A stretch of 64,000 bases of DNA from Oscillospiraceae bacterium. GTDB taxonomy: Bacteria > Bacillota > Clostridia > Oscillospirales > Ruminococcaceae. The translations under genes and the position numbers were made by a program. How positions within the stretch are numbered: position 1 is the stretch's first letter; the number at the start of each line of letters is the position of its first letter. The notes beneath the pieces are model-generated. The model was not told where the DNA came from and ran no database searches. It worked only from the letters and a program-made list of their open reading frames with translations. The stretch spans positions 12,351 through 76,350 of the forward strand of contig JAFUOZ010000041.1 of assembly GCA_017481565.1 (NCBI GenBank), written 5' to 3'. Positions 45,066-57,437 of this stretch are shown one piece after another.

Positions 45066-45194
45066 TTTTAATCGACATATATTTATATTGCGGCTATGAT
45101 ATAATGTATTTCATACAGGAAATACAGACGGTATATGCTTTTTTACGGATAAAGCTATACCGTGTACTTAAAAAACAATGAAAGGATAAATATT

Positions 45195-46127
45195 ATGACT
45201 AACAGAATCACAGAGCTTCTCGGAACAAGATATCCTATTCTTCAGGGCGGTATGGCGTGGATCGCCGAAAGTACACTTGCTTCCGCCGTATCTAATGCAG
45301 GCGGTGTAGGTCTTATCGCAGGCGGCAGCGCTCCCATTGATTATCTGAGAGATCAGATCCGCCGCTGCAAGGAGCTTACAGACAAGCCCTTCGGCGTAAA
45401 TATCATGCTTATGTCTCCCAATGCGGAGGATCTTGCTCAGCTTTGCATAGATGAGGGTGTAAGGGTAGTTACAACAGGCGCAGGCAACCCCGGAAAGTTT
45501 ATCCCTGCATGGAAGGACGCAGGAATAAAGGTTATCCCCGTTGTTCCTTCGGTAGCGCTTGCAAAGAGAATGGAAAGATCGGGCGCAGACGCAGTTATCG
45601 CTGAGGGTACCGAATCAGGCGGTCATATCGGCGAAAACACAACCATGTGCCTTGTTCCTCAGGTAGTTGACGCTGTAAAGATACCTGTTATCGCAGCAGG
45701 CGGAATCGCAGACGGCAGAGGCATTGCGGCTTCCTTTATGCTCGGTGCGGAGGGCGTTCAGGTAGGAACACGCTTCCTTGCTTCCGATGAAGTACAGATC
45801 AGCCCCGTTTACAAGCAGCTGGTCATCGATGCAAAGGATACAGACAATGTTGTAACAGGACGTACAACAGGTCACCCCTGCAGAAATGTTAAGACCAAGT
45901 TTGCAAAGCAGCTTGCGGCAGGTGAGATGAACGGTACTCTCACTCCCGAAAAGTTTGAGGAGATCACTCTCGGTTCACTGAGAAAGGCAGTTCAGGACGG
46001 AAATCTTGAAGAAGGCTCGTTCCTCTGCGGTCTTATTGCAGGTATGGTAAATGAGATAAAGCCCTGTCAGGCTATCATCGATGAAATGTTTGCACAGGCA
46101 GGAAAGCTGCTTAATATTGAATTTTAA
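45195..46127 (+). CDS. fabK: enoyl-ACP reductase II (FMN-dependent, nitronate-monooxygenase fold)
   Basis: YPILQGGMAWI, ESGGHIG, AAGGIADGRG. ATG at 45195. Confidence 0.88.
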   Translation: MTNRITELLGTRYPILQGGMAWIAESTLASAVSNAGGVGLIAGGSAPIDYLRDQIRRCKELTDKPFGVNIMLMSPNAEDLAQLCIDEGVRVVTTGAGNPGKFIPAWKDAGIKVIPVVPSVALAKRMERSGADAVIAEGTESGGHIGENTTMCLVPQVVDAVKIPVIAAGGIADGRGIAASFMLGAEGVQVGTRFLASDEVQISPVYKQLVIDAKDTDNVVTGRTTGHPCRNVKTKFAKQLAAGEMNGTLTPEKFEEITLGSLRKAVQDGNLEEGSFLCGLIAGMVNEIKPCQAIIDEMFAQAGKLLNIEF

Positions 46128-49394: not shown

Positions 49395-50735
49395 ATGATA
49401 AGTAAAATTCTTATTGCCAACAGAGGCGAGATCGCTGTAAGAATAATCCGTGCCTGCCGTGAAATGGGTATAAAGACCGTTGCTGTCTATTCCACAGCCG
49501 ATAAGAATGCCCTGCACGCAAGGATCGCTGATGAGGCGGTCTGCATAGGCGGACCTGCCACAAAGGACAGCTATCTTAACATGAAGGCTGTTATTGCAGC
49601 TTGTGAGATAACGGGTGCAGAGGCTATTCACCCCGGTTTCGGTTTTCTTTCCGAAAATGCATCCTTTGCAAGAATGTGCGGAAAGTGCGGAATTATCTTT
49701 ATCGGTCCTTCTCCCGAATCTATAGAGATGCTGGGAGACAAGGCGGCGGCAAAGACAGCTATGAAGAATGCAGGGGTACCTGTTATCCCCGGGTCAGACG
49801 GTGCGGTGCGCTCAATGACCGATATCAGAAAAACAGCCGCTGAGATAGGCTTTCCTCTTATGATAAAGGCGTCGGCAGGCGGCGGCGGAAGAGGAATACG
49901 TCTTGTAAACAATGAAGATGAGCTGGAGGCTCAGGCTACTGCGGCAAAGCAGGAGGCTCTGAACTTTTTCGGCGATGACAGCATATATATGGAAAGGTTC
50001 ATCATTGACCCCAAGCACATCGAATTCCAAATTCTTGCAGACAAGTTCGGAAATGTGATACACCTGGGCGAGAGAGACTGTTCCATGCAGAGAAGAAATC
50101 AGAAGGTGCTGGAGGAAACTCCCTCCGCTGTCATGACGGAGGACCTGCGCCGCAGAATGGGCGCTGCCGCTGTTGCAGCCGCTAAGGTATGCGGATATCA
50201 CAATGCAGGTACCATTGAATTTTTGGTAGACAGTGAGCAGAACTTCTATTTCATGGAGATGAATACACGTATTCAGGTAGAACACCCTATCACCGAGCTT
50301 GTAACAGGTGTTGATCTGGTAAAGCAGCAGATAATGATCGCTGACGGAAAGCCTCTGCCCTATCATCAGGAGGATATCAGTTTAAGAGGTCATGCGATAG
50401 AGTGCCGTATCAATGCGGAAAGTCCCGAGGCAGGCTTCAGACCCAGCCCCGGAAAGATAACAGCGCTCCATACCCCCGGAGGTCCCGGAATAAGAATAGA
50501 CAGCTCTGCTTATCAGGGCTATACCATAACTCCCTACTATGACAGCATGATAGCAAAGCTTATTGCCTATGCGCCTACCCGTGAGGAAGCAATCGCAAAG
50601 ATGAAATGGGCGCTTGCTGAATTTATAGTTGAGGGCGTTGATACTAATATTGATTTTCAGCTCAGCCTTATCTGTGATCCCAATTTTGAAAAGGGCGATT
50701 ATGATATAGGCTATTTAGGCAGGAAAATGAAATAA
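49395..50735 (+). CDS. accC: biotin carboxylase subunit of acetyl-CoA carboxylase
   Basis: KILIANRGEIAVRIIRAC, GGGGRGIR, EMNTRIQVEHP. Confidence 0.96.
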   Translation: MISKILIANRGEIAVRIIRACREMGIKTVAVYSTADKNALHARIADEAVCIGGPATKDSYLNMKAVIAACEITGAEAIHPGFGFLSENASFARMCGKCGIIFIGPSPESIEMLGDKAAAKTAMKNAGVPVIPGSDGAVRSMTDIRKTAAEIGFPLMIKASAGGGGRGIRLVNNEDELEAQATAAKQEALNFFGDDSIYMERFIIDPKHIEFQILADKFGNVIHLGERDCSMQRRNQKVLEETPSAVMTEDLRRRMGAAAVAAAKVCGYHNAGTIEFLVDSEQNFYFMEMNTRIQVEHPITELVTGVDLVKQQIMIADGKPLPYHQEDISLRGHAIECRINAESPEAGFRPSPGKITALHTPGGPGIRIDSSAYQGYTITPYYDSMIAKLIAYAPTREEAIAKMKWALAEFIVEGVDTNIDFQLSLICDPNFEKGDYDIGYLGRKMK

Positions 50736-50834
50736 ATTATATCAGAAATAAACCTTACATGTTTTATGAGTAAGTATGTGTGAGACGGGTATGCCCCCTG
50801 TCTCCGCAGGGCTTACTGTATGCAGGTGAATAAT

Positions 50835-51563
50835 ATGAAACGATGTCCCTTATGTTCGGGAAAGGTAAAGGACGGAATGTGTGTTGACTGCGGATATTCC
50901 ATTCCCGATGAAGACGAACTCAATGAAATTTCAAGCATATATAATACTGAGCCTGAGGAGGAGCCTGAGGAAAGGTATCCTCAGAAGGAATATATCCCCG
51001 AAAGCTATCAGCGTGAGGAAATGCCTGACAGAATGCCCTACGGCTATGCTGAGCCTTCGGAAAAGTATATCCCCAAGGTTGCGGTAATTCCCGACCCTGT
51101 GCAGAATAACGGGGTACATACGGGTAACCAAAGCGGTTACATACCTTATCAGCCGAACAGTACGGGGACAGGTGCGTCCATGGGCGGAGGTACGGGGTAT
51201 GTGCAAAGCGGAAGCAATCCTCAGGGATATGTGCAGAACGGATATAACGGAAATGTACAGAGCGGTTATAACGGCAATGTGCAGAACGGAAGTCCCATGA
51301 GCAAAACGGGCAGCACCAATTATGACCCTACTGCCAATTTTACACCCTATCAGAATGTTCCTGCGGCGAACAATAAAACCAATATTTTTTCAAATCTTAA
51401 AGCCTCGGATCTTAAATGGGGCGAGCTTCTTGCATCGTTCTTTATACCCTTTGTGGGATTTATTCTGGGAATAAAGAATCTTTCAAAATCAGGCGGAACA
51501 GACAAGGATAAGGCAATGGGAATTATTTGTCTCGGGCTTGCTGTTCTGGGATTGTTTTTATAA
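50835..51563 (+). CDS. zinc-ribbon / low-complexity / C-terminal TM protein (paralogue 1 of 4)
   Basis: MKRCPLCSGKVKDGMCVDCGYSIPDEDEL. Q/N/G/Y-rich repeats (GYVQSG, GYNGNVQ). C-terminal hydrophobic hairpin. AGGTGA 6 nt upstream of the ATG. Confidence 0.8.
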   Translation: MKRCPLCSGKVKDGMCVDCGYSIPDEDELNEISSIYNTEPEEEPEERYPQKEYIPESYQREEMPDRMPYGYAEPSEKYIPKVAVIPDPVQNNGVHTGNQSGYIPYQPNSTGTGASMGGGTGYVQSGSNPQGYVQNGYNGNVQSGYNGNVQNGSPMSKTGSTNYDPTANFTPYQNVPAANNKTNIFSNLKASDLKWGELLASFFIPFVGFILGIKNLSKSGGTDKDKAMGIICLGLAVLGLFL

Positions 51564-51568
51564 TACAA

Positions 51569-52111
51569 ATGAACGATATAGAAAAATGTCCTCTTTGCGG
51601 AGGACGCTCAAAAAGCGGAAAATGCCTGAGCTGCGGATATATCATTCCCGACAGCTCAGAGCTTGAATATATGACTAAGCTTGCAAGCGCAGAGCCTGAG
51701 GATTATCCTGAGGAGGAGGCTGCAAGAAATCTCTTTGAAGCAGATGTAAATGTAAAGGTGTATCATAACGATCTGCCCGATATCTGCGATAAAAATCAGA
51801 CAGACCCTTATCTGAAAAGAAAGACTGAATACAGGACAAAGCCGAAAAGCACTTATGTACACCCCGACAGAAAGCCGTTATTCAGGGAAAAGCTTGATAT
51901 GCTGCTTGAAAATAACCGTTTTATTTTTTATGGCGCATATATATTGTCAATGCTGCTTCCGCTGAGGATATATGTAATATTCATTCATATAATAATGCTT
52001 CTCTGGGCAGCTGTTTTCAGGGATAAAGCGGATTTTATGAGTGAAAATAAAATGTGGCTGATGTATGTGGGAGCGGTAATGGCTATTGTTCTTAAGCTTT
52101 CTATGATGTGA
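51569..52111 (+). CDS. zinc-ribbon membrane protein (paralogue 2 of 4)
   Basis: MNDIEKCPLCGGRSKSGKCLSCGYIIPDSSELEYMTKLASAEPEDYP. Two C-terminal TM helices. Starts 5 nt after the paralogue 1 stop. No SD. Confidence 0.8.
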   Translation: MNDIEKCPLCGGRSKSGKCLSCGYIIPDSSELEYMTKLASAEPEDYPEEEAARNLFEADVNVKVYHNDLPDICDKNQTDPYLKRKTEYRTKPKSTYVHPDRKPLFREKLDMLLENNRFIFYGAYILSMLLPLRIYVIFIHIIMLLWAAVFRDKADFMSENKMWLMYVGAVMAIVLKLSMM

Positions 52112-52126
52112 TGTGACTAAAATATC

Positions 52127-52747
52127 ATGAATGAAAAAACGAAATGTCCTCTGTGCGGAGGACGCTCAAAAAGCGGAATATGCTCCGAATGCGGATATAT
52201 CATTCCCGACAGTGAGGAGCTTGATTACGAAACAAGGCTTGCAAGCGCAGAGCCTGAGGATTATCCTCGTCAGGAGGCTATGCGCAATGTGCTTGCGGAG
52301 GAGAAGGTAAACGTAAAGGTCAGAAATGATTATATGCCCGATGTGCTTACTCCGCCGCCTCCGCCTGTACAGACTGTAAAAAAGCCTGCTGTCAATAAGC
52401 AGAGTTCTGTCAATAAGCAGAGTTCTGTCAATAATGTAAATAATGCTGCTCCGATGAAAAAAAGTGTTTATGTTCATCGGGGAGAAAGGCTCAGCTTAAT
52501 TGACAGGATAGATAATATGCTTTACAGAAATTCAAAAATATTTTATGGGATATATATTGCACTGATGCTTCTGCTTTCCGGTGAGGAATATATGGCAGCG
52601 GTACTTATTTCCCTGTTTTTATATATGCTTATAGGTATAAGATGCGATTTTTTCAGTACTAAAAAGACGATACTGCTGTATCTGACAGCTATACTGGCTA
52701 TCATCGTCAAATTGGGACTTGAAGAAATGTTCAGATACGGTTTTTAA
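52127..52747 (+). CDS. zinc-ribbon membrane protein (paralogue 3 of 4)
   Basis: MNEKTKCPLCGGRSKSGICSECGYIIPDSEELDYETRLASAEPEDYP. PPPPP/VNKQSS linker. Two TM helices. Confidence 0.8.
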   Translation: MNEKTKCPLCGGRSKSGICSECGYIIPDSEELDYETRLASAEPEDYPRQEAMRNVLAEEKVNVKVRNDYMPDVLTPPPPPVQTVKKPAVNKQSSVNKQSSVNNVNNAAPMKKSVYVHRGERLSLIDRIDNMLYRNSKIFYGIYIALMLLLSGEEYMAAVLISLFLYMLIGIRCDFFSTKKTILLYLTAILAIIVKLGLEEMFRYGF

Positions 52748-52751
52748 CGAT

Positions 52752-53330
52752 ATGAATGAAATACAAAAATGTCCCCTCTGTGGAGGAAAAACCATAAGCG
52801 GCTTATGTATGGAATGTGATTACGTCATTCCCGATGGTGATGAGCTTGAATATATGACCTTGCTTGCAAACACAGAGCCTGAGGATTATCCGACGGCAGA
52901 GGCGGCAAAAAACGAGCTTTTGTCCGCACCTGTAAAGGTGAAGGTGAAAACGGATTATATGCCTGATGTATATGAGGTGCCGCCGTCGGTTCAGCTGACA
53001 CCTGCAAATAATCCCCCTGCAAATAATAATATCAATAATATCAATAATACGGCAGTGCAGAAGAATGTCAATATGTATGTACCGCCTTCACAGCCTCAGC
53101 AGAAAACGGCTTTTGAAAAAATTTATGACTGGTGGTACGATCATTTTTATATCGGGTATATATTACTTCTTATATTGGCGGTCATTATGCCGTCAGCTGT
53201 TGATGTAGCTATCGGGGGAGCACTGCTTATTCCCGATTTTGAGGATGATGATCCCTTTAACCCTAACAAACTGAAAATAGGCGCTATACTGCTTATAATC
53301 GGTTTGCTTAAATTTCAGTTTCTGGATTAG
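52752..53330 (+). CDS. zinc-ribbon membrane protein (paralogue 4 of 4)
   Basis: MNEIQKCPLCGGKTISGLCMECDYVIPDGDELEYMTLLANTEPEDYP. N/P-rich linker. Two TM helices. Starts 4 nt after the paralogue 3 stop. Confidence 0.8.
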   Translation: MNEIQKCPLCGGKTISGLCMECDYVIPDGDELEYMTLLANTEPEDYPTAEAAKNELLSAPVKVKVKTDYMPDVYEVPPSVQLTPANNPPANNNINNINNTAVQKNVNMYVPPSQPQQKTAFEKIYDWWYDHFYIGYILLLILAVIMPSAVDVAIGGALLIPDFEDDDPFNPNKLKIGAILLIIGLLKFQFLD

Positions 53331-53351: not shown

Positions 53352-54242
53352 TTGTTAGAGGATCTTTTTAATGTGGTCACCACACGCTTTAACAGCGTTG
53401 TGAAGGACGATAAGGATAAAAAAGAAAGCAAAAGCACTGTTGATATTCCTAAGGATCTGTTTTTCAAATGTCCCCGATGCTCGTCGGTTGTTGTGTCGGA
53501 GGATCTGGACAATAATCTGGGAGTATGTCCCGACTGCGGTTATCATTCAAGAATATCCGCAGTGAGAAGGCTTGCTATGGTTGCAGATAAGGAAAGCTTT
53601 ATTGAATATGACAAGGATATGATAAGCAAGAATCCTATAGATTTCCCCGAATATGAGGAAAAACAGGCAAAGCTCAGGGAACAGACAGGTCTTAAGGACG
53701 CTGTTATCACGGGAGAATGTACAATAAGAGGCAGAAAATGCGTTATCGGTATCATGGATTCACGGTATATGATGGCATCTATGGGAAGTGTTGTGGGCGA
53801 AAAGCTTACAAGAGCCTTTGAAAAGGCTACCGAAAAGAGACTTCCTATCGTGCTGTTTACCGCTTCGGGCGGTGCAAGAATGCAGGAGGGTATGGTATCC
53901 CTTATGCAGATGGCAAAGACAAGCGGTGCGGCTGCAAGACATTCCGAGGCAGGCCTTTTATATATAACCGTTATGACCGATCCTACTACGGGCGGTGTTA
54001 CGGCTTCTTTTGCGTCTCTGGGCGATATCATCATCGCTGAGCCTAAGGTGCTTATCGGCTTTGCGGGCAGACGTGTTATCGAGGGAACTATCAAGCAGAG
54101 ACTTCCTGAGGATTTTCAGTCCGCTGAGTTTTTGCTGGAGCATGGCTTTGTTGATATGATAGTTGACAGAAAAAGCATGAGAAAAACCCTTTCTCATCTT
54201 ATCAGTCTTCATACCGATAATGTGGAGGTGAAGGACAGATGA
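53352..54242 (+). CDS. accD: acetyl-CoA carboxylase carboxyltransferase beta subunit (TTG start)
   Basis: (M)LEDLFN... matches the usual AccD N-terminus. Zn ribbon CPRC-x15-[15 protein letters not shown]. Confidence 0.93.
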
Positions 54243-55066
54243 GTATGAATAATATCACACCATGGAAAAAAATGGAGATAATCCGTCATAAGAATCGTCC
54301 TACCATAAGGGATTATCTTCCTATGATATTTGAAGATTTCTATGAGATGCACGGTGACCGTCTTTACGGCGATGACGGTGCGATAATAGGCGGAATAGGC
54401 AGGCTGAGAGGTATGCCTGTGACAATTATCGCTGAGGTAAAGGGCAGAGACCTTAACGAAAATAAGCAGTCCAATTTTGCCATGCCTCACCCTGAGGGCT
54501 ACAGAAAGGCGCTCAGGCTTGCAAAACAGGCTGAAAAGTTCAAACGACCTGTTATATGCTTTATAGATACTCCCGGCGCATTCTGCGGCATAGAGGCTGA
54601 GAAGAGGGGACAGGGAGAGGCTATTGCCCGAAACCTTTTTGAGTTTATGACCCTGAAAACTCCCGTTGTATCGGTGGTGCTGGGCGAGGGCGGCAGCGGC
54701 GGCGCACTGGCTCTTGGCGTATGCGATGAGCTTGGTATGCTTTCAAACTCGATCTATTCGGTAATTTCACCGAGAGGCTTTGCTTCTATACTCTGGAAGG
54801 ACGCATCAAGGGAGAAGGAAGCCTGCAATATCATGAAAATAACAGCCGAGGATCTGACTGAGCTTCAGATCTGTGACGCTATAATTGAGGAGTCGGAAGG
54901 GGGCGCTCACAACGACCCGATGATGACTGCCGAAAATATTGAAGAATTTTTGGTAAAAACGCTGAAAGAAAAAATGCAAATAGATATTGACGTTTTGCTA
55001 AATCAACGTTATACTAAATTTAGAAAAATCGGTGAGTTTGAGGAATCGGCTGCGGCTGAGGAATAA
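54239..55066 (+). CDS. accA: acetyl-CoA carboxylase carboxyltransferase alpha subunit
   Basis: Overlaps the accD stop (ATGA). [26 protein letters not shown]. Confidence 0.93.
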
Positions 55067-55531: not shown

Positions 55532-57397
55532 TTGAACAAGAAAACAATTATCAAGGCGGTATATGCCGTTATTATTGCGGCGGTGACATTCTTTCTTTCG
55601 TATTCACAGGAAATGTTTGAAGAGCCGCTTCTTAAGAAAACAGACAATATGCTTAAGGATGTGCTCTATCAGCAGGAGCTGCCTATAAGCCGTGATATAA
55701 AGATAATAGCGATAGATGATAAGACACTGGAAAAATACGGTCCTTTCGGTACGTGGTCAAGAAGTACTTATGCGGACCTTATAAATATACTTAATTCAAA
55801 CGAGGGGCTTGAACCTGCCGTTATCGGCTTTGATATAATGTTCTTCGGAAATATGGACGAGGAGGGCGACAGGCTCTTTGCGGAAACTGCGGAAAAGGCA
55901 GGAAATGTAGTGCTTTCCTCAAATATACTCTATAACGACTCAAAGATACTTACAGATGAAAACGGAAATGAATATATCGATACCATGTATATCGAAAACA
56001 TAGAATATCCCTATGAGGCGTTAAACAAGGCGGCTGAAAGCGGATTTGTAAATATCTCCGCAGACAATGACGGAGTTGTCCGCAGGATAATTCCTACGGT
56101 AACATTTAACGGGGAGACAAGGGACAGCTTCTCTAAGGTGATATATGAAAAATACTGTGCTTATCTTGGTGAGACACCCAATGAAATAATTACAGACAGA
56201 GACAACAGCATGACAGTGAGATTTACGGGCGCACCGGGAGATTACAGTGCAACCTCGCTTTGTGATGTGCTTGACGGTACTGCTGACCCCCGTAATTTTG
56301 CAGGGGCTGCAGTGCTTGTGGGAGCTTATGCGCAGGGTATGCAGGACGCACAGAGTGTTCCTACGTCTCATGAGCAGATGTACGGCGTTGAGATACACGC
56401 AAACGTTATTGAGGCTATGTATGAGGGAATCTTTCCTGTGCAGGCGGACAGGCTTGTCTGTGCCTTTATATCTGCTGTTATAGCGGCGCTGCTGTTTATA
56501 CTTATGAGCAATGTAAAGTTTGCGATAGTTACTGTGATAGCTGCTGCTGCTTTTGTGGGAGAGGTTTTTGCGGCGTATATGCTTTCGCAGAACAATGTGT
56601 TTGTTGACCTTGTTTATCTGCCGATCATGACCATAGTAAGCTATGTTGTTGTGGTAATTATGAATTACGTTGTTGAGCGTATCATAAGAAACAAGACCCT
56701 TAATGCATTCAAGAAATATGTTGACCCCAAGTTTATCAGGGATATGCAGAGAAGCGGCGGAGATTTTAAGATCGAGCTTGGCGGAGAAAGCAGGGAATGT
56801 GCGCTTCTGTTTGTTGACATCAGAGGCTTTACCGCTCTTTCGGAGTGTCTTACTCCAAAGGAGGTAGTACACGTACTGAATAAATACCTTAAGCTTACCA
56901 CTGATTCGGTAATAAATAACGGCGGTACGGTGGACAAGTTTGTAGGGGACTGTACCATGGCTATATTCAATGCTCCCTTTGACCTTGACGACTATGTATT
57001 CAAGGCTGTATGTGCAGGCTTTGATATTATTTCGGGAGATAAGGAATTCAATGAGCATATTGAAGAGGGACTTTCCGAAGAATCGGTAAGAAAGCTGAGA
57101 GAGCGTTGGGCAACGAGAACGGACAACGGCGTGGGTTTTGGTGTAGGAATACACTGCGGAGAGGCTGTTGTGGGAAATATCGGCTGTGATTTCCGTATGG
57201 ACTATACGGCGATAGGCGATACTGTAAATACAGCGGCAAGAATCGAAAGCGGAGCAAAGAAGGCGCAGCTTTGCATAAGCGGTGATGTATATGAGCTTGT
57301 GAAGGACAGAGTAGAGATAGACGGATATGAGGATAAGATGTTCAAGAATAAATCCGAGCCTGTAAGATGTTATTCGGTAGTCGGGGTTAAAAGGTAA
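55532..57397 (+). CDS. CHASE2-domain membrane sensor fused to a class III adenylate/guanylate cyclase domain
   Basis: N-terminal TM, ~300-aa extracytoplasmic region, 3 TM, then LLFVDIRGFTALSE, KFVGDCTMAIFNAP, GIHCGEAVVGNIG, DYTAIGDTVNTAARIES. TTG start after AAGGAG. Confidence 0.88.
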   Translation: MNKKTIIKAVYAVIIAAVTFFLSYSQEMFEEPLLKKTDNMLKDVLYQQELPISRDIKIIAIDDKTLEKYGPFGTWSRSTYADLINILNSNEGLEPAVIGFDIMFFGNMDEEGDRLFAETAEKAGNVVLSSNILYNDSKILTDENGNEYIDTMYIENIEYPYEALNKAAESGFVNISADNDGVVRRIIPTVTFNGETRDSFSKVIYEKYCAYLGETPNEIITDRDNSMTVRFTGAPGDYSATSLCDVLDGTADPRNFAGAAVLVGAYAQGMQDAQSVPTSHEQMYGVEIHANVIEAMYEGIFPVQADRLVCAFISAVIAALLFILMSNVKFAIVTVIAAAAFVGEVFAAYMLSQNNVFVDLVYLPIMTIVSYVVVVIMNYVVERIIRNKTLNAFKKYVDPKFIRDMQRSGGDFKIELGGESRECALLFVDIRGFTALSECLTPKEVVHVLNKYLKLTTDSVINNGGTVDKFVGDCTMAIFNAPFDLDDYVFKAVCAGFDIISGDKEFNEHIEEGLSEESVRKLRERWATRTDNGVGFGVGIHCGEAVVGNIGCDFRMDYTAIGDTVNTAARIESGAKKAQLCISGDVYELVKDRVEIDGYEDKMFKNKSEPVRCYSVVGVKR

Positions 57398-57402
57398 ATA
57401 TG

Positions 57403-57437
57403 CAATGCGCAATTCGTAATGTGTAATGCGCAATTAA
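57403..57437 (+). repeat. five YAATKCG heptads starting 6 nt after the cyclase stop codon
   Basis: CAATGCG CAATTCG TAATGTG TAATGCG CAATTAA. Confidence 0.6.

Follow-up and report, generated by a model that had tools for sequence, protein, structure and literature searches.

The stretch of DNA analysed here, referred to as the window, comprises 64,000 nucleotides (nt) of an Oscillospiraceae bacterium (contig JAFUOZ010000041.1, positions 12,351 to 76,350). As evident from the open reading frame (ORF) listing and the Pfam matches, its + strand carries a complete type II fatty-acid synthesis operon extending from fabH to acpP, within which the acetyl-CoA carboxylase (ACC) genes accC and accD are separated by four small genes, designated P1 to P4. 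A preliminary description of the DNA had placed four same-strand ORFs of 242, 180, 206 and 192 amino acids (aa) in this gap, and both the ORF listing and the raw sequence confirmed them. The spacers measure 99 nt between accC and P1, 5, 15 and 4 nt at the P1-P2, P2-P3 and P3-P4 junctions, and 21 nt between P4 and accD. P1 to P4 are paralogues of an undescribed family specific to a clade of Clostridia, the metagenome-assembled genomes (MAGs) of which are labelled Oscillospiraceae or Ruminococcus, and this family has neither a curated model nor a literature. Within the fab/acc operon, the family has its fixed home directly 3' of accC.

Alignment of the four proteins displays an invariant N-terminal motif, C-P-L-C-x8-C-x2-C-[GD]-Y-x-I-P-D-x2-E-L, together with E-P-E, and P2 to P4 also share LA-x2-EPEDYP-x2-EA-x2-N...V-x-VKV. 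All four continue with a variable linker rich in P/N/Q and, as judged from hydropathy, end in two hydrophobic segments; these features, and the motif common to P2-P4, agree with those described earlier. The CPLC ribbon of the earlier N-terminal motif also stands, while its spacing has to be corrected, as P1 begins with M-x2 and not M-x3-5, and the ribbon spacing is x8 in all four. The C-terminal hydrophobic region of P3 is split into three segments, those of P1, P2 and P4 comprising exactly two. The structure of P1 was predicted with AlphaFold2 (AF2) from an alignment of 112 sequences, which gave a predicted local distance difference test score (pLDDT) of 88-95 for residues 1-30, below 50 for residues 89-182 (predicted disorder) and 78-90 for residues 190-242; an earlier run on 6 sequences was poor (pLDDT 55). 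In P1 the ribbon and a helix occupy residues 1-35, and are followed by the motif SSIYNTEPEE, an N/Q/G/Y-rich linker and a hairpin at residues 195-241, in which hydropathy places segments at 196-217 and 225-242, and AF2 places helices at 195-203, 205-217 and 223-241. The inter-helix loop of P4 is acidic (EDDDPFNP).

The preliminary description had proposed a profile search with the conserved N-terminal module, and the paralogues are indeed not orphans. An exhaustive hidden Markov model (HMM) profile search of 1.84 billion representative proteins recovered 68 representative clusters at E<=1e-3, 18 of them at E<=1e-10, whereas a word-indexed search of 5.8 billion proteins with the four paralogues as queries returned same-species copies only. 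A second indexed search with a 58-member alignment yielded 109 clusters (90% identity) with no curated domain recorded, except DZR on protein P0008; the source names, where given, read 'hypothetical protein [Oscillospiraceae bacterium]', and one is labelled Prevotella sp. Members are 130-300 aa long and share one architecture, in which alignment and AF2 delineate a folded four-Cys ribbon with one helix, a long disordered region that is first acidic and then N/Q/P/Y-rich and bears linear motifs, and a terminal hairpin. The ribbon consensus of the family is M-x3-K-C-P-L-C-G-G-K-x4-C-x-S-C-G-Y-x2-P-D-E with a spacing of x8-9 (K-C-P-L-C-x8-9-C-x2-C-G-Y-x2-P-D/E), to which P1-P4 conform. It is followed by S-A-L-Y-N-x-D-P-x-D-Y-P, usually then by R-E-I-x-P-x4-E-E-I-Y-P-N-R-P...K-V-R, and by a low-complexity N/Q/G/P/Y-rich stretch often containing N-P-Y-A-x-F-S/T-P; the linear motifs of the family are accordingly written Y-N-x-D-P-x-D-Y-P, R-E-I-x-P...E-E-I-Y-P-N-R-P...K-V-R and N-P-Y-A-x-F-S/T-P. 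The terminal hairpin opens with (K)YWW (motif WW...P..G), the Pro of its first segment being 95% conserved, and the Cys, Pro, Gly and Tyr columns of the ribbon are 95-100% conserved over 112 members. Exactly two terminal hydrophobic segments were recorded by hydropathy in 55/58 members.

Two subtypes can be told apart by the block following the ribbon, where P1 carries the variant SSIYNTEPEEEPEERYP and P2-P4 carry the 'type B' variant (ELEYMT..EPEDYP..VNVKV). The latter also occurs in P0009-P0011 and P0051, as well as in the third of the three ribbons of protein P0008. The closest relatives of P1 are P0012-P0015, encoded between accC and accD in the loci L004 and L005. A search of the JGI metagenomes with the type-B alignment gave no match.

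No known family accounts for these proteins. Neither Pfam nor NCBIfam matched the family above threshold; Pfam DZR (PF12773; gathering threshold 27.3 bits) scored 13.4-14.9 bits with P1-P3 (E 0.03-0.09), did not match P4, and was sub-threshold in 17/58 members, with a best E of 5e-4 and a score of 20 bits for P0024. A PDB sequence search with the family profile (E>=0.05) and a Foldseek search with the AF2 model of P1 (E>=3) likewise gave no meaningful match. A phage or defence origin was rejected, since two viral contig scans held no family relatives, PADLOC gave no match, and the single PHROG match was marginal and at the level of the ribbon (P3, E 0.008). Zinc-binding anti-sigma factors (ZAS, H-x3-C-x2-C) were also rejected as a candidate, the family having C-x2-C...C-x2-C without His and no adjacent sigma factor gene. 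Gene calling may contribute to this obscurity: as seen in proteins P0003, P0005 and P0007, database entries often place the start of P1 and P4 at a Met inside the ribbon, between its two CxxC knuckles (228 and 173 aa), and extend P2-type genes to an upstream TTG overlapping P1. The miscalled starts of P1 and P4 hide the ribbon domain from annotation pipelines, and the family may never have been modelled because its ribbon is cut or masked in this way.

Homologues were gathered by sequence alone, through protein look-ups of divergent representatives and two motif scans, one covering one genome per GTDB species (17 loci) and the other metagenome contigs (7 loci); the motif used for the GTDB scan is one absent from the window's own copies. 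The fab/acc proteins of the window were mapped onto 41 loci, including the window itself, three of which (L040 among them) were too short to judge. Family genes lie directly 3' of accC and/or directly 5' of accD in 38/38 informative loci. The accC/accD slot is occupied in 17/17 GTDB genome loci and in all metagenome loci with flanks, and an accC homologue stands upstream of the family gene in every locus with a 5' flank. No family copy away from accC was encountered among the loci found. Copies per locus number one, which is commonest, two, three or four, the last only in the window's species. AccC is 75-100% identical to that of the window over the informative loci and 75-87% identical in the more distant ones, in which the family proteins retain only ~20-40% full-length identity to P1. 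The records are of MAGs from rabbit, mouse and human gut and are titled 'Oscillospiraceae', 'Ruminococcus sp.', 'Ruminococcaceae' or 'uncultured Clostridia'. A lack of enrichment of homologues next to acc genes had been named earlier as the finding that would overturn a link with ACC; every homologue with flanks adjoins accC and/or accD. The conserved ORFs and the slot kept in all informative loci also bear out the earlier view that the paralogues are real and part of the fab/acc operon.

One rearranged locus bears on which ACC gene the family accompanies. The contig L027 (ENA ERZ27270767, 1-12603) carries, in order, S20, efp, a gene for an acidic 167-aa protein, an energy-coupling factor (ECF) S-component, fabZ, accC, two family genes and opposite-strand genes, the family genes encoding P0010 and the 326-aa three-ribbon protein P0008. 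accB, accD and accA are not present in this contig of 12603 nt. Retention of the family after accC without accD and accA suggests that the linkage is primarily to accC. The 167-aa protein of this contig is very acidic and ends in a C-terminal double CxxC.

Transcription signals were inspected for any element that would isolate the four genes, as the preliminary description had considered. A terminator scan located no terminator-like site on the + strand in the accC-P1 or the P4-accD spacer, so that no terminator separates them from either accC or accD. A terminator-like match at the P1/P2 junction (51529-51552) was dismissed, as it folds no better than its shuffles (z -0.48). The stem-loop of the accC-P1 spacer (Table 1) is kept in L002 and L003, both of which are assemblies from the window's species or a sister of it, and its outer stem shows one compensatory double change there, U-A to C-G. 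In L004 and L005 the spacer measures only 21-26 nt and holds no such stem-loop. Lacking a U-tract, the structure does not qualify as a canonical terminator, and it may be an mRNA processing or stabilising element setting the relative expression of the operon halves; Rfam gave no match to a known RNA anywhere in the window. At 53263-53299 in the 3' end of P4, ~55 nt before accD, the sequence holds two overlapping sigma-70-like hexamer pairs (CTGAAA-17-TATAAT, 10/12 matches), one promoter-like pair being placed at 53271-53299. They could be an internal promoter for accD-accA; the stretch is A+T-rich, and such pairs are within the background rate (37 found vs 23 +/- 6 expected). With no terminator, a promoter-like pair at background level and gaps of 4-21 nt from P1 to accD, no signal isolates the four genes.

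A Shine-Dalgarno sequence precedes only P1, as noted before, P2-P4 having no purine-rich stretch upstream. Translational coupling of P2-P4, suggested on these grounds, is plausible in view of the 4-15 nt junctions without Shine-Dalgarno sequence. It would be peculiar to the window's species, however, since most family genes elsewhere have G-rich ribosome-binding sites.

Table 1. Coordinates of the operon genes and of features within the four family genes (window numbering)
Feature	Position	Strand	Evidence or remark
fabH	starts 44070	+	ORF/Pfam
fabK	45162-46127	+	FabK-type (NMO family) enoyl-acyl carrier protein reductase, between fabH and fabG
fabG	starts 46153	+	
fabF	starts 46996	+	
accB	starts 48307	+	
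fabZ	starts 48940	+	
accC, biotin carboxylase	49395-50735	+	Pfam Biotin_carb_N, CPSase_L_D2, Biotin_carb_C, E 5e-76 to 4e-40
Stem-loop in accC-P1 spacer	50771-50815	+	dG -20.3 kcal/mol, z -4.0, 0/200 shuffles fold as well
Shine-Dalgarno-like AGGTGA of P1	50824-50829	+	5 nt before ATG 50835
P1, 242 aa	50835-51563	+	ORF + alignment; 'type A', orthologue of widespread single-copy form
P1 four-Cys zinc ribbon (C4, C7, C16, C19)	50844-50891	+	Strands pLDDT >=90
P1 linker, 24-nt in-frame tandem repeat x2.8	51225-51290	+	Tandem Repeats Finder (TRF) score 97
P1 hydrophobic helical hairpin	51417-51557	+	Kinked at conserved Pro; short loop KSGGTDK; no tail
P2, 180 aa	51569-52111	+	ORF + alignment; 'type B' (ELEYMT..EPEDYP..VNVKV)
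P3, 206 aa	52127-52747	+	ORF + alignment; type B
P3 linker, perfect 18-nt in-frame tandem repeat x2.6 (VNKQSS)	52389-52434	+	TRF 100% matches
P4, 192 aa	52752-53330	+	ORF + alignment; type B
P4 linker, in-frame tandem repeat	53025-53049	+	
accD, carboxyltransferase beta	53352-54242	+	Pfam Zn_ribbon_ACC E=1.7e-8, Carboxyl_trans E=4e-21
AccD's own zinc ribbon, residues 37-62	53460-53537	+	Zn_ribbon_ACC 34.9 bits
accA, carboxyltransferase alpha	54239-55066	+	Overlaps accD stop; ACCA + Carboxyl_trans recorded on identical L001 gene
acpP	starts 55129	+	

The locus is also present in three assemblies that stem from the window's species or a sister of it (L001, L002 and L003), and selection on the four genes was assessed against two of them. 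The ratio of nonsynonymous to synonymous substitution rates (dN/dS) is 0.16-0.42 for P1-P4 as compared to 0.00-0.05 for fabF, fabZ, accC, accD and accA (vs L002 and L003); by gene it is 0.16-0.21 for P1, 0.42 for P2 and 0.19 for P3 (vs L002). P1-P4 are under purifying but relaxed selection. Conservation in other assemblies, dN/dS below 1 and the 68 homologous clusters place these ORFs far beyond chance.

Copy number and alleles turn over within the window's species. P2 is 94% identical to its L002 orthologue. The P4 allele of L002 has a different C-terminal half (41% identity, synonymous divergence (dS) 1.45) between flanking genes that are 99-100% identical, and the L003 array holds three copies, not four, its P2 and P4 showing a dS of 1.4-1.6 vs 0.27 for accD. 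As these dS values are far above those of the flanks, the divergent copies of L002 and L003 are replaced alleles or paralogues and not simple orthologues. The VNKQSS repeat of P3 is polymorphic, with one unit fewer in L001 and L002 (200 aa), and linker length evolves by repeat slippage. The 5' ~150 nt of P2 and P3 had been called nearly identical, which overstates the likeness, since identity amounts to 84% across 120 nt and to 79-81% across 150 nt. Gene conversion, proposed at the same time beside recent duplication, is plausible as a partial event, because dS between P2 and P3 is 0.41 in the 5' 150 nt, one third of that in the remainder of the gene (1.25).

Other parts of the operon also differ between lineages. 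fabK had no tblastn match in the corresponding operons of 17 related GTDB loci (L006-L022), several of which have a ~450-nt gap there. The fab/acc operon of L039 has another lineage-specific insertion at 1940-2635, where two short ORFs of 70 and 150 aa, without annotation or Pfam match, stand between fabG and fabF. The gene after acpP encodes a membrane CHASE2-adenylate/guanylate cyclase in the window's species (55532-57397) and a ~1010-aa GGDEF-EAL protein in two other lineages (L028 7956-10988; L039 10513-13542), a second-messenger enzyme thus being found repeatedly downstream of the operon. A 470-aa ORF antisense to the cyclase gene (56021-57433, - strand) is most likely a spurious shadow ORF.

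The constancy of the slot makes it likely that the family is functionally tied to ACC or lipid synthesis. Such a tie to ACC or membrane-lipid synthesis is well supported, because the homologues always adjoin accC or accD and no terminator lies between. As to its nature, we tentatively favour, by analogy with known systems, a lineage-specific membrane-anchored partner of ACC that would dock or sequester the enzyme, most likely via AccC. The hairpin would fix the protein in the cytoplasmic membrane, whereas the ribbon and the linear motifs would be cytoplasmic and would bind an ACC component. That the N-terminal region is cytoplasmic is suggested by its Cys4 site, by its length of ~120-200 residues and by the fact that a signal peptide is apparently lacking. 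AccC is judged the likeliest partner, since the family stays with accC in L027, where accD is absent. ACC docked or sequestered at the membrane in this manner, by inhibition or by scaffolding, would couple malonyl-CoA production to membrane biogenesis. The window's species has an expanded set of four genes, a single ancestral one of 'type A' and three of 'type B', and P2-P4 are probably translated by coupling to the preceding gene. A wider form of the proposal, held with somewhat more reserve, is that the family may be, in abundant gut Clostridia, an unrecognised and lineage-specific membrane-anchored ACC component whose ribbon and motifs capture either AccC or the carboxyltransferase, and so set the malonyl-CoA supply by the state of the membrane.

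Several observations weigh against an ACC partner. The homologues are all confined to a single, fairly narrow clade, so that shared ancestry in a very stable operon accounts for part of the synteny. A copy number varying from 1 to 4, allele replacement and repeat slippage would be unusual for the partner of an essential enzyme, and some 'orthologues' show a dS of 0.9-1.6 vs 0.08-0.27 for the flanks. Furthermore, the inter-helix loop is usually K/R-rich, with a mean of 1.9 K/R in ~6 residues, which misfits a simple N-in/loop-out topology under the positive-inside rule; the hairpin may be re-entrant or its orientation different. Finally, the case for AccC over AccD or AccA comes from L027, a single rearranged metagenomic contig.

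The main alternative, which we regard as somewhat less likely, is a role in membrane or lipid homeostasis without ACC contact, such as sensing or organising lipids, assisting the enzymes of phospholipid synthesis or handling acyl chains. The proteins would be co-expressed with fatty-acid synthesis, and the operon position would reflect co-regulation only. Membrane-anchored proteins encoded in a fab operon agree with such a role, and the sequence points to no specific ACC subunit, since neither Pfam nor PDB nor Foldseek yields a significant relative; rapid evolution and a varying number of copies are also easier to reconcile with a non-stoichiometric membrane component than with an enzyme subunit. 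The position is, however, far more specific than a place anywhere in the fab operon, the genes being always directly after accC and never between other fab genes. In L027, which lacks accD, accA and the upstream fab genes except fabZ, the family is likewise found with accC.

An improbable alternative is the decoy put forward in the preliminary description, in which the paralogue ribbon mimics that of AccD and competes for mRNA or for another ACC subunit, the anchor making the competition dependent on the state of the membrane. Both ribbons are four-Cys sites reading K-C-P-x-C...C-x-x-C-G-Y, the AccD ribbon (PF17848) is encoded 21 nt 3' of P4, and the family genes adjoin accD in nearly all loci. 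Comparison of the family N-terminus with the AccD ribbons of the same loci by hhalign returned a probability of 92.8% over 21 columns, and mRNA binding by the E. coli carboxyltransferase has been reported (PMC2831308). The hhalign match, however, consists of the two CxxC knuckles only and includes a 7-residue gap, the spacing being x8 in the family vs x15 in AccD, whose ribbon is fused to a carboxyltransferase fold. Pfam Zn_ribbon_ACC (PF17848; cut-off 24.5 bits) has no match to P1-P4 at E<=1, nor to the 58 members, while the generic DZR model does match weakly, and P1-P4 contain no Carboxyl_trans domain by Pfam. Run against PDB sequences, the family profile lists the ribbons of L32 and Nop10 at E 0.25-0.7, whereas carboxyltransferase chains do not appear at E<=1. 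The resemblance noticed earlier therefore holds for the two knuckles and not beyond them; it is that of any two C4 ribbons, and specific homology to the AccD ribbon was rejected. Decoy function is thus not specifically supported, L027 having the family without an adjacent accD, and the motifs that define the family sit outside the ribbon. The mRNA-binding role of the E. coli ribbon has, moreover, reportedly been disputed by Smith and Cronan in J Bacteriol in 2014.

Still less probable, and largely refuted, is the other suggestion of the preliminary description, a neutral or selfish insertion of an unrelated expanding family that persists in a permissive site by hitch-hiking. Tandem expansion, allele replacement, repeat slippage, a G+C of 0.36-0.45 in P1-P4, slightly below that of the flanking acc genes (~0.48), and the lack of any known function would all be in keeping with it. 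Nevertheless, the ORFs are intact and the motifs conserved in every informative locus, dN/dS is well below 1, and no copies were found except after accC. The accC-accD gap contains no transposase or integrase gene, and the viral contig scans show no phage relatives, PADLOC no match and PHROG only the one marginal match. The permissive-site idea was rejected because the slot is conserved across lineages in which the family proteins are only ~20-40% identical to P1. The faintest prospect is a zinc donor or chaperone, tethered to the membrane and serving the AccD ribbon that is translated next, for although a four-Cys site directly upstream of a zinc-dependent subunit and a gene order compatible with co-translational hand-over would fit, the idea is purely speculative, a structural ribbon holds zinc tightly and makes a poor donor, L027 lacks an adjacent accD, and the conserved non-ribbon motifs are left unexplained.

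The gene family is previously unannotated and genuine, and its gene-neighbourhood signal is among the tightest to be hoped for, although small accessory or regulatory ACC partners as such are already known, and it fills the accC-distal slot in a whole clade of mostly uncultured gut anaerobes. Regulation of ACC in Gram-positives is only now being worked out. If the family binds ACC, it would provide a handle on the control of lipid synthesis in gut Clostridia labelled Oscillospiraceae or Ruminococcus, and a compact example of a regulator that combines a ribbon and short linear motifs with a membrane hairpin; the tandem copies (1-4, two subtypes) would then be isoforms differing in anchor and linker. 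Should it not bind ACC, it remains a conserved member of the operon, presumably in the context of membrane biogenesis.

Among known proteins, the Firmicutes proteins of DZR/Zn_Ribbon_1 type, such as TcaA, resemble the family in having an N-terminal C4 ribbon, a low-complexity linker and at least one transmembrane segment, and P1 has a weak match to the TcaA N-terminus (E 0.23). The scores are, however, below curated cut-offs, and the family has its own motifs (YNxDPxDYP, REIxPE..EEIYPNRP..KVR, WW..P..G) and the fixed accC slot. AccE, the actinobacterial epsilon subunit, and plant BADC are small non-catalytic modulators of ACC holoenzyme assembly or activity, encoded beside ACC subunit genes or paralogous to ACC subunits, BADC being paralogous to biotin carboxyl carrier protein (BCCP). 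Both differ from the family in being soluble, and AccE has neither a ribbon nor a membrane anchor.

It is only in the last few years that small non-enzymatic ACC partners have come to light: RfaA/YqhY from Bacillus, the E. coli protein YhcB and the CTI proteins of plastids. The proposal of ACC docking leans on these three independent precedents, to none of which the family is homologous. The B. subtilis yqhY (rfaA) gene lies directly distal to accC, in an accBC-yqhY operon kept in many Firmicutes (PMC5437119), and RfaA/YqhY holds ACC in check by binding AccC and passing it to ClpEP (bioRxiv 10.1101/2024.02.19.580884). Its accC-distal position matches that of the family exactly, and L027 resembles the Bacillus efp...accC-yqhY neighbourhood; the analogy is positional only. 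There is no relationship in sequence or fold, no Asp23 (DUF322) Pfam match being recorded in P1-P4 or the 58 members scanned, and YqhY is soluble or peripheral, without zinc ribbon, disordered linker or transmembrane hairpin. The family would, if the proposal is true, be a non-orthologous replacement of YqhY/RfaA in the accC-distal slot.

The other two precedents are membrane proteins. YhcB of the E. coli inner membrane binds AccA through its cytoplasmic part and apparently sequesters it, lowering fatty-acid synthesis (PMC12977641, PMC11237625). It is a small membrane-anchored protein with a mechanism of the kind proposed for the family, but has an N-terminal single-pass anchor and a coiled coil, belongs to Gammaproteobacteria, is encoded outside the acc operon and is not homologous. 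The CTI proteins of the plant and algal plastid envelope dock the alpha-carboxyltransferase (alpha-CT) of heteromeric ACC and attenuate flux, with three paralogues in Arabidopsis (PMC7712654). They share with the family the form of small membrane proteins in a small paralogous set, and differ in being eukaryotic, in having a coiled coil in place of a zinc ribbon and in binding a non-catalytic alpha-CT extension that bacteria lack; they too are not homologous. Of the traits of YhcB and CTI, the family has a membrane hairpin and no predicted coiled coil. If it does bind ACC, it would represent a third independent solution to docking the enzyme at the membrane beside YhcB and CTI, and docking ACC to membranes would prove to be a recurrent strategy that arose by convergent evolution.

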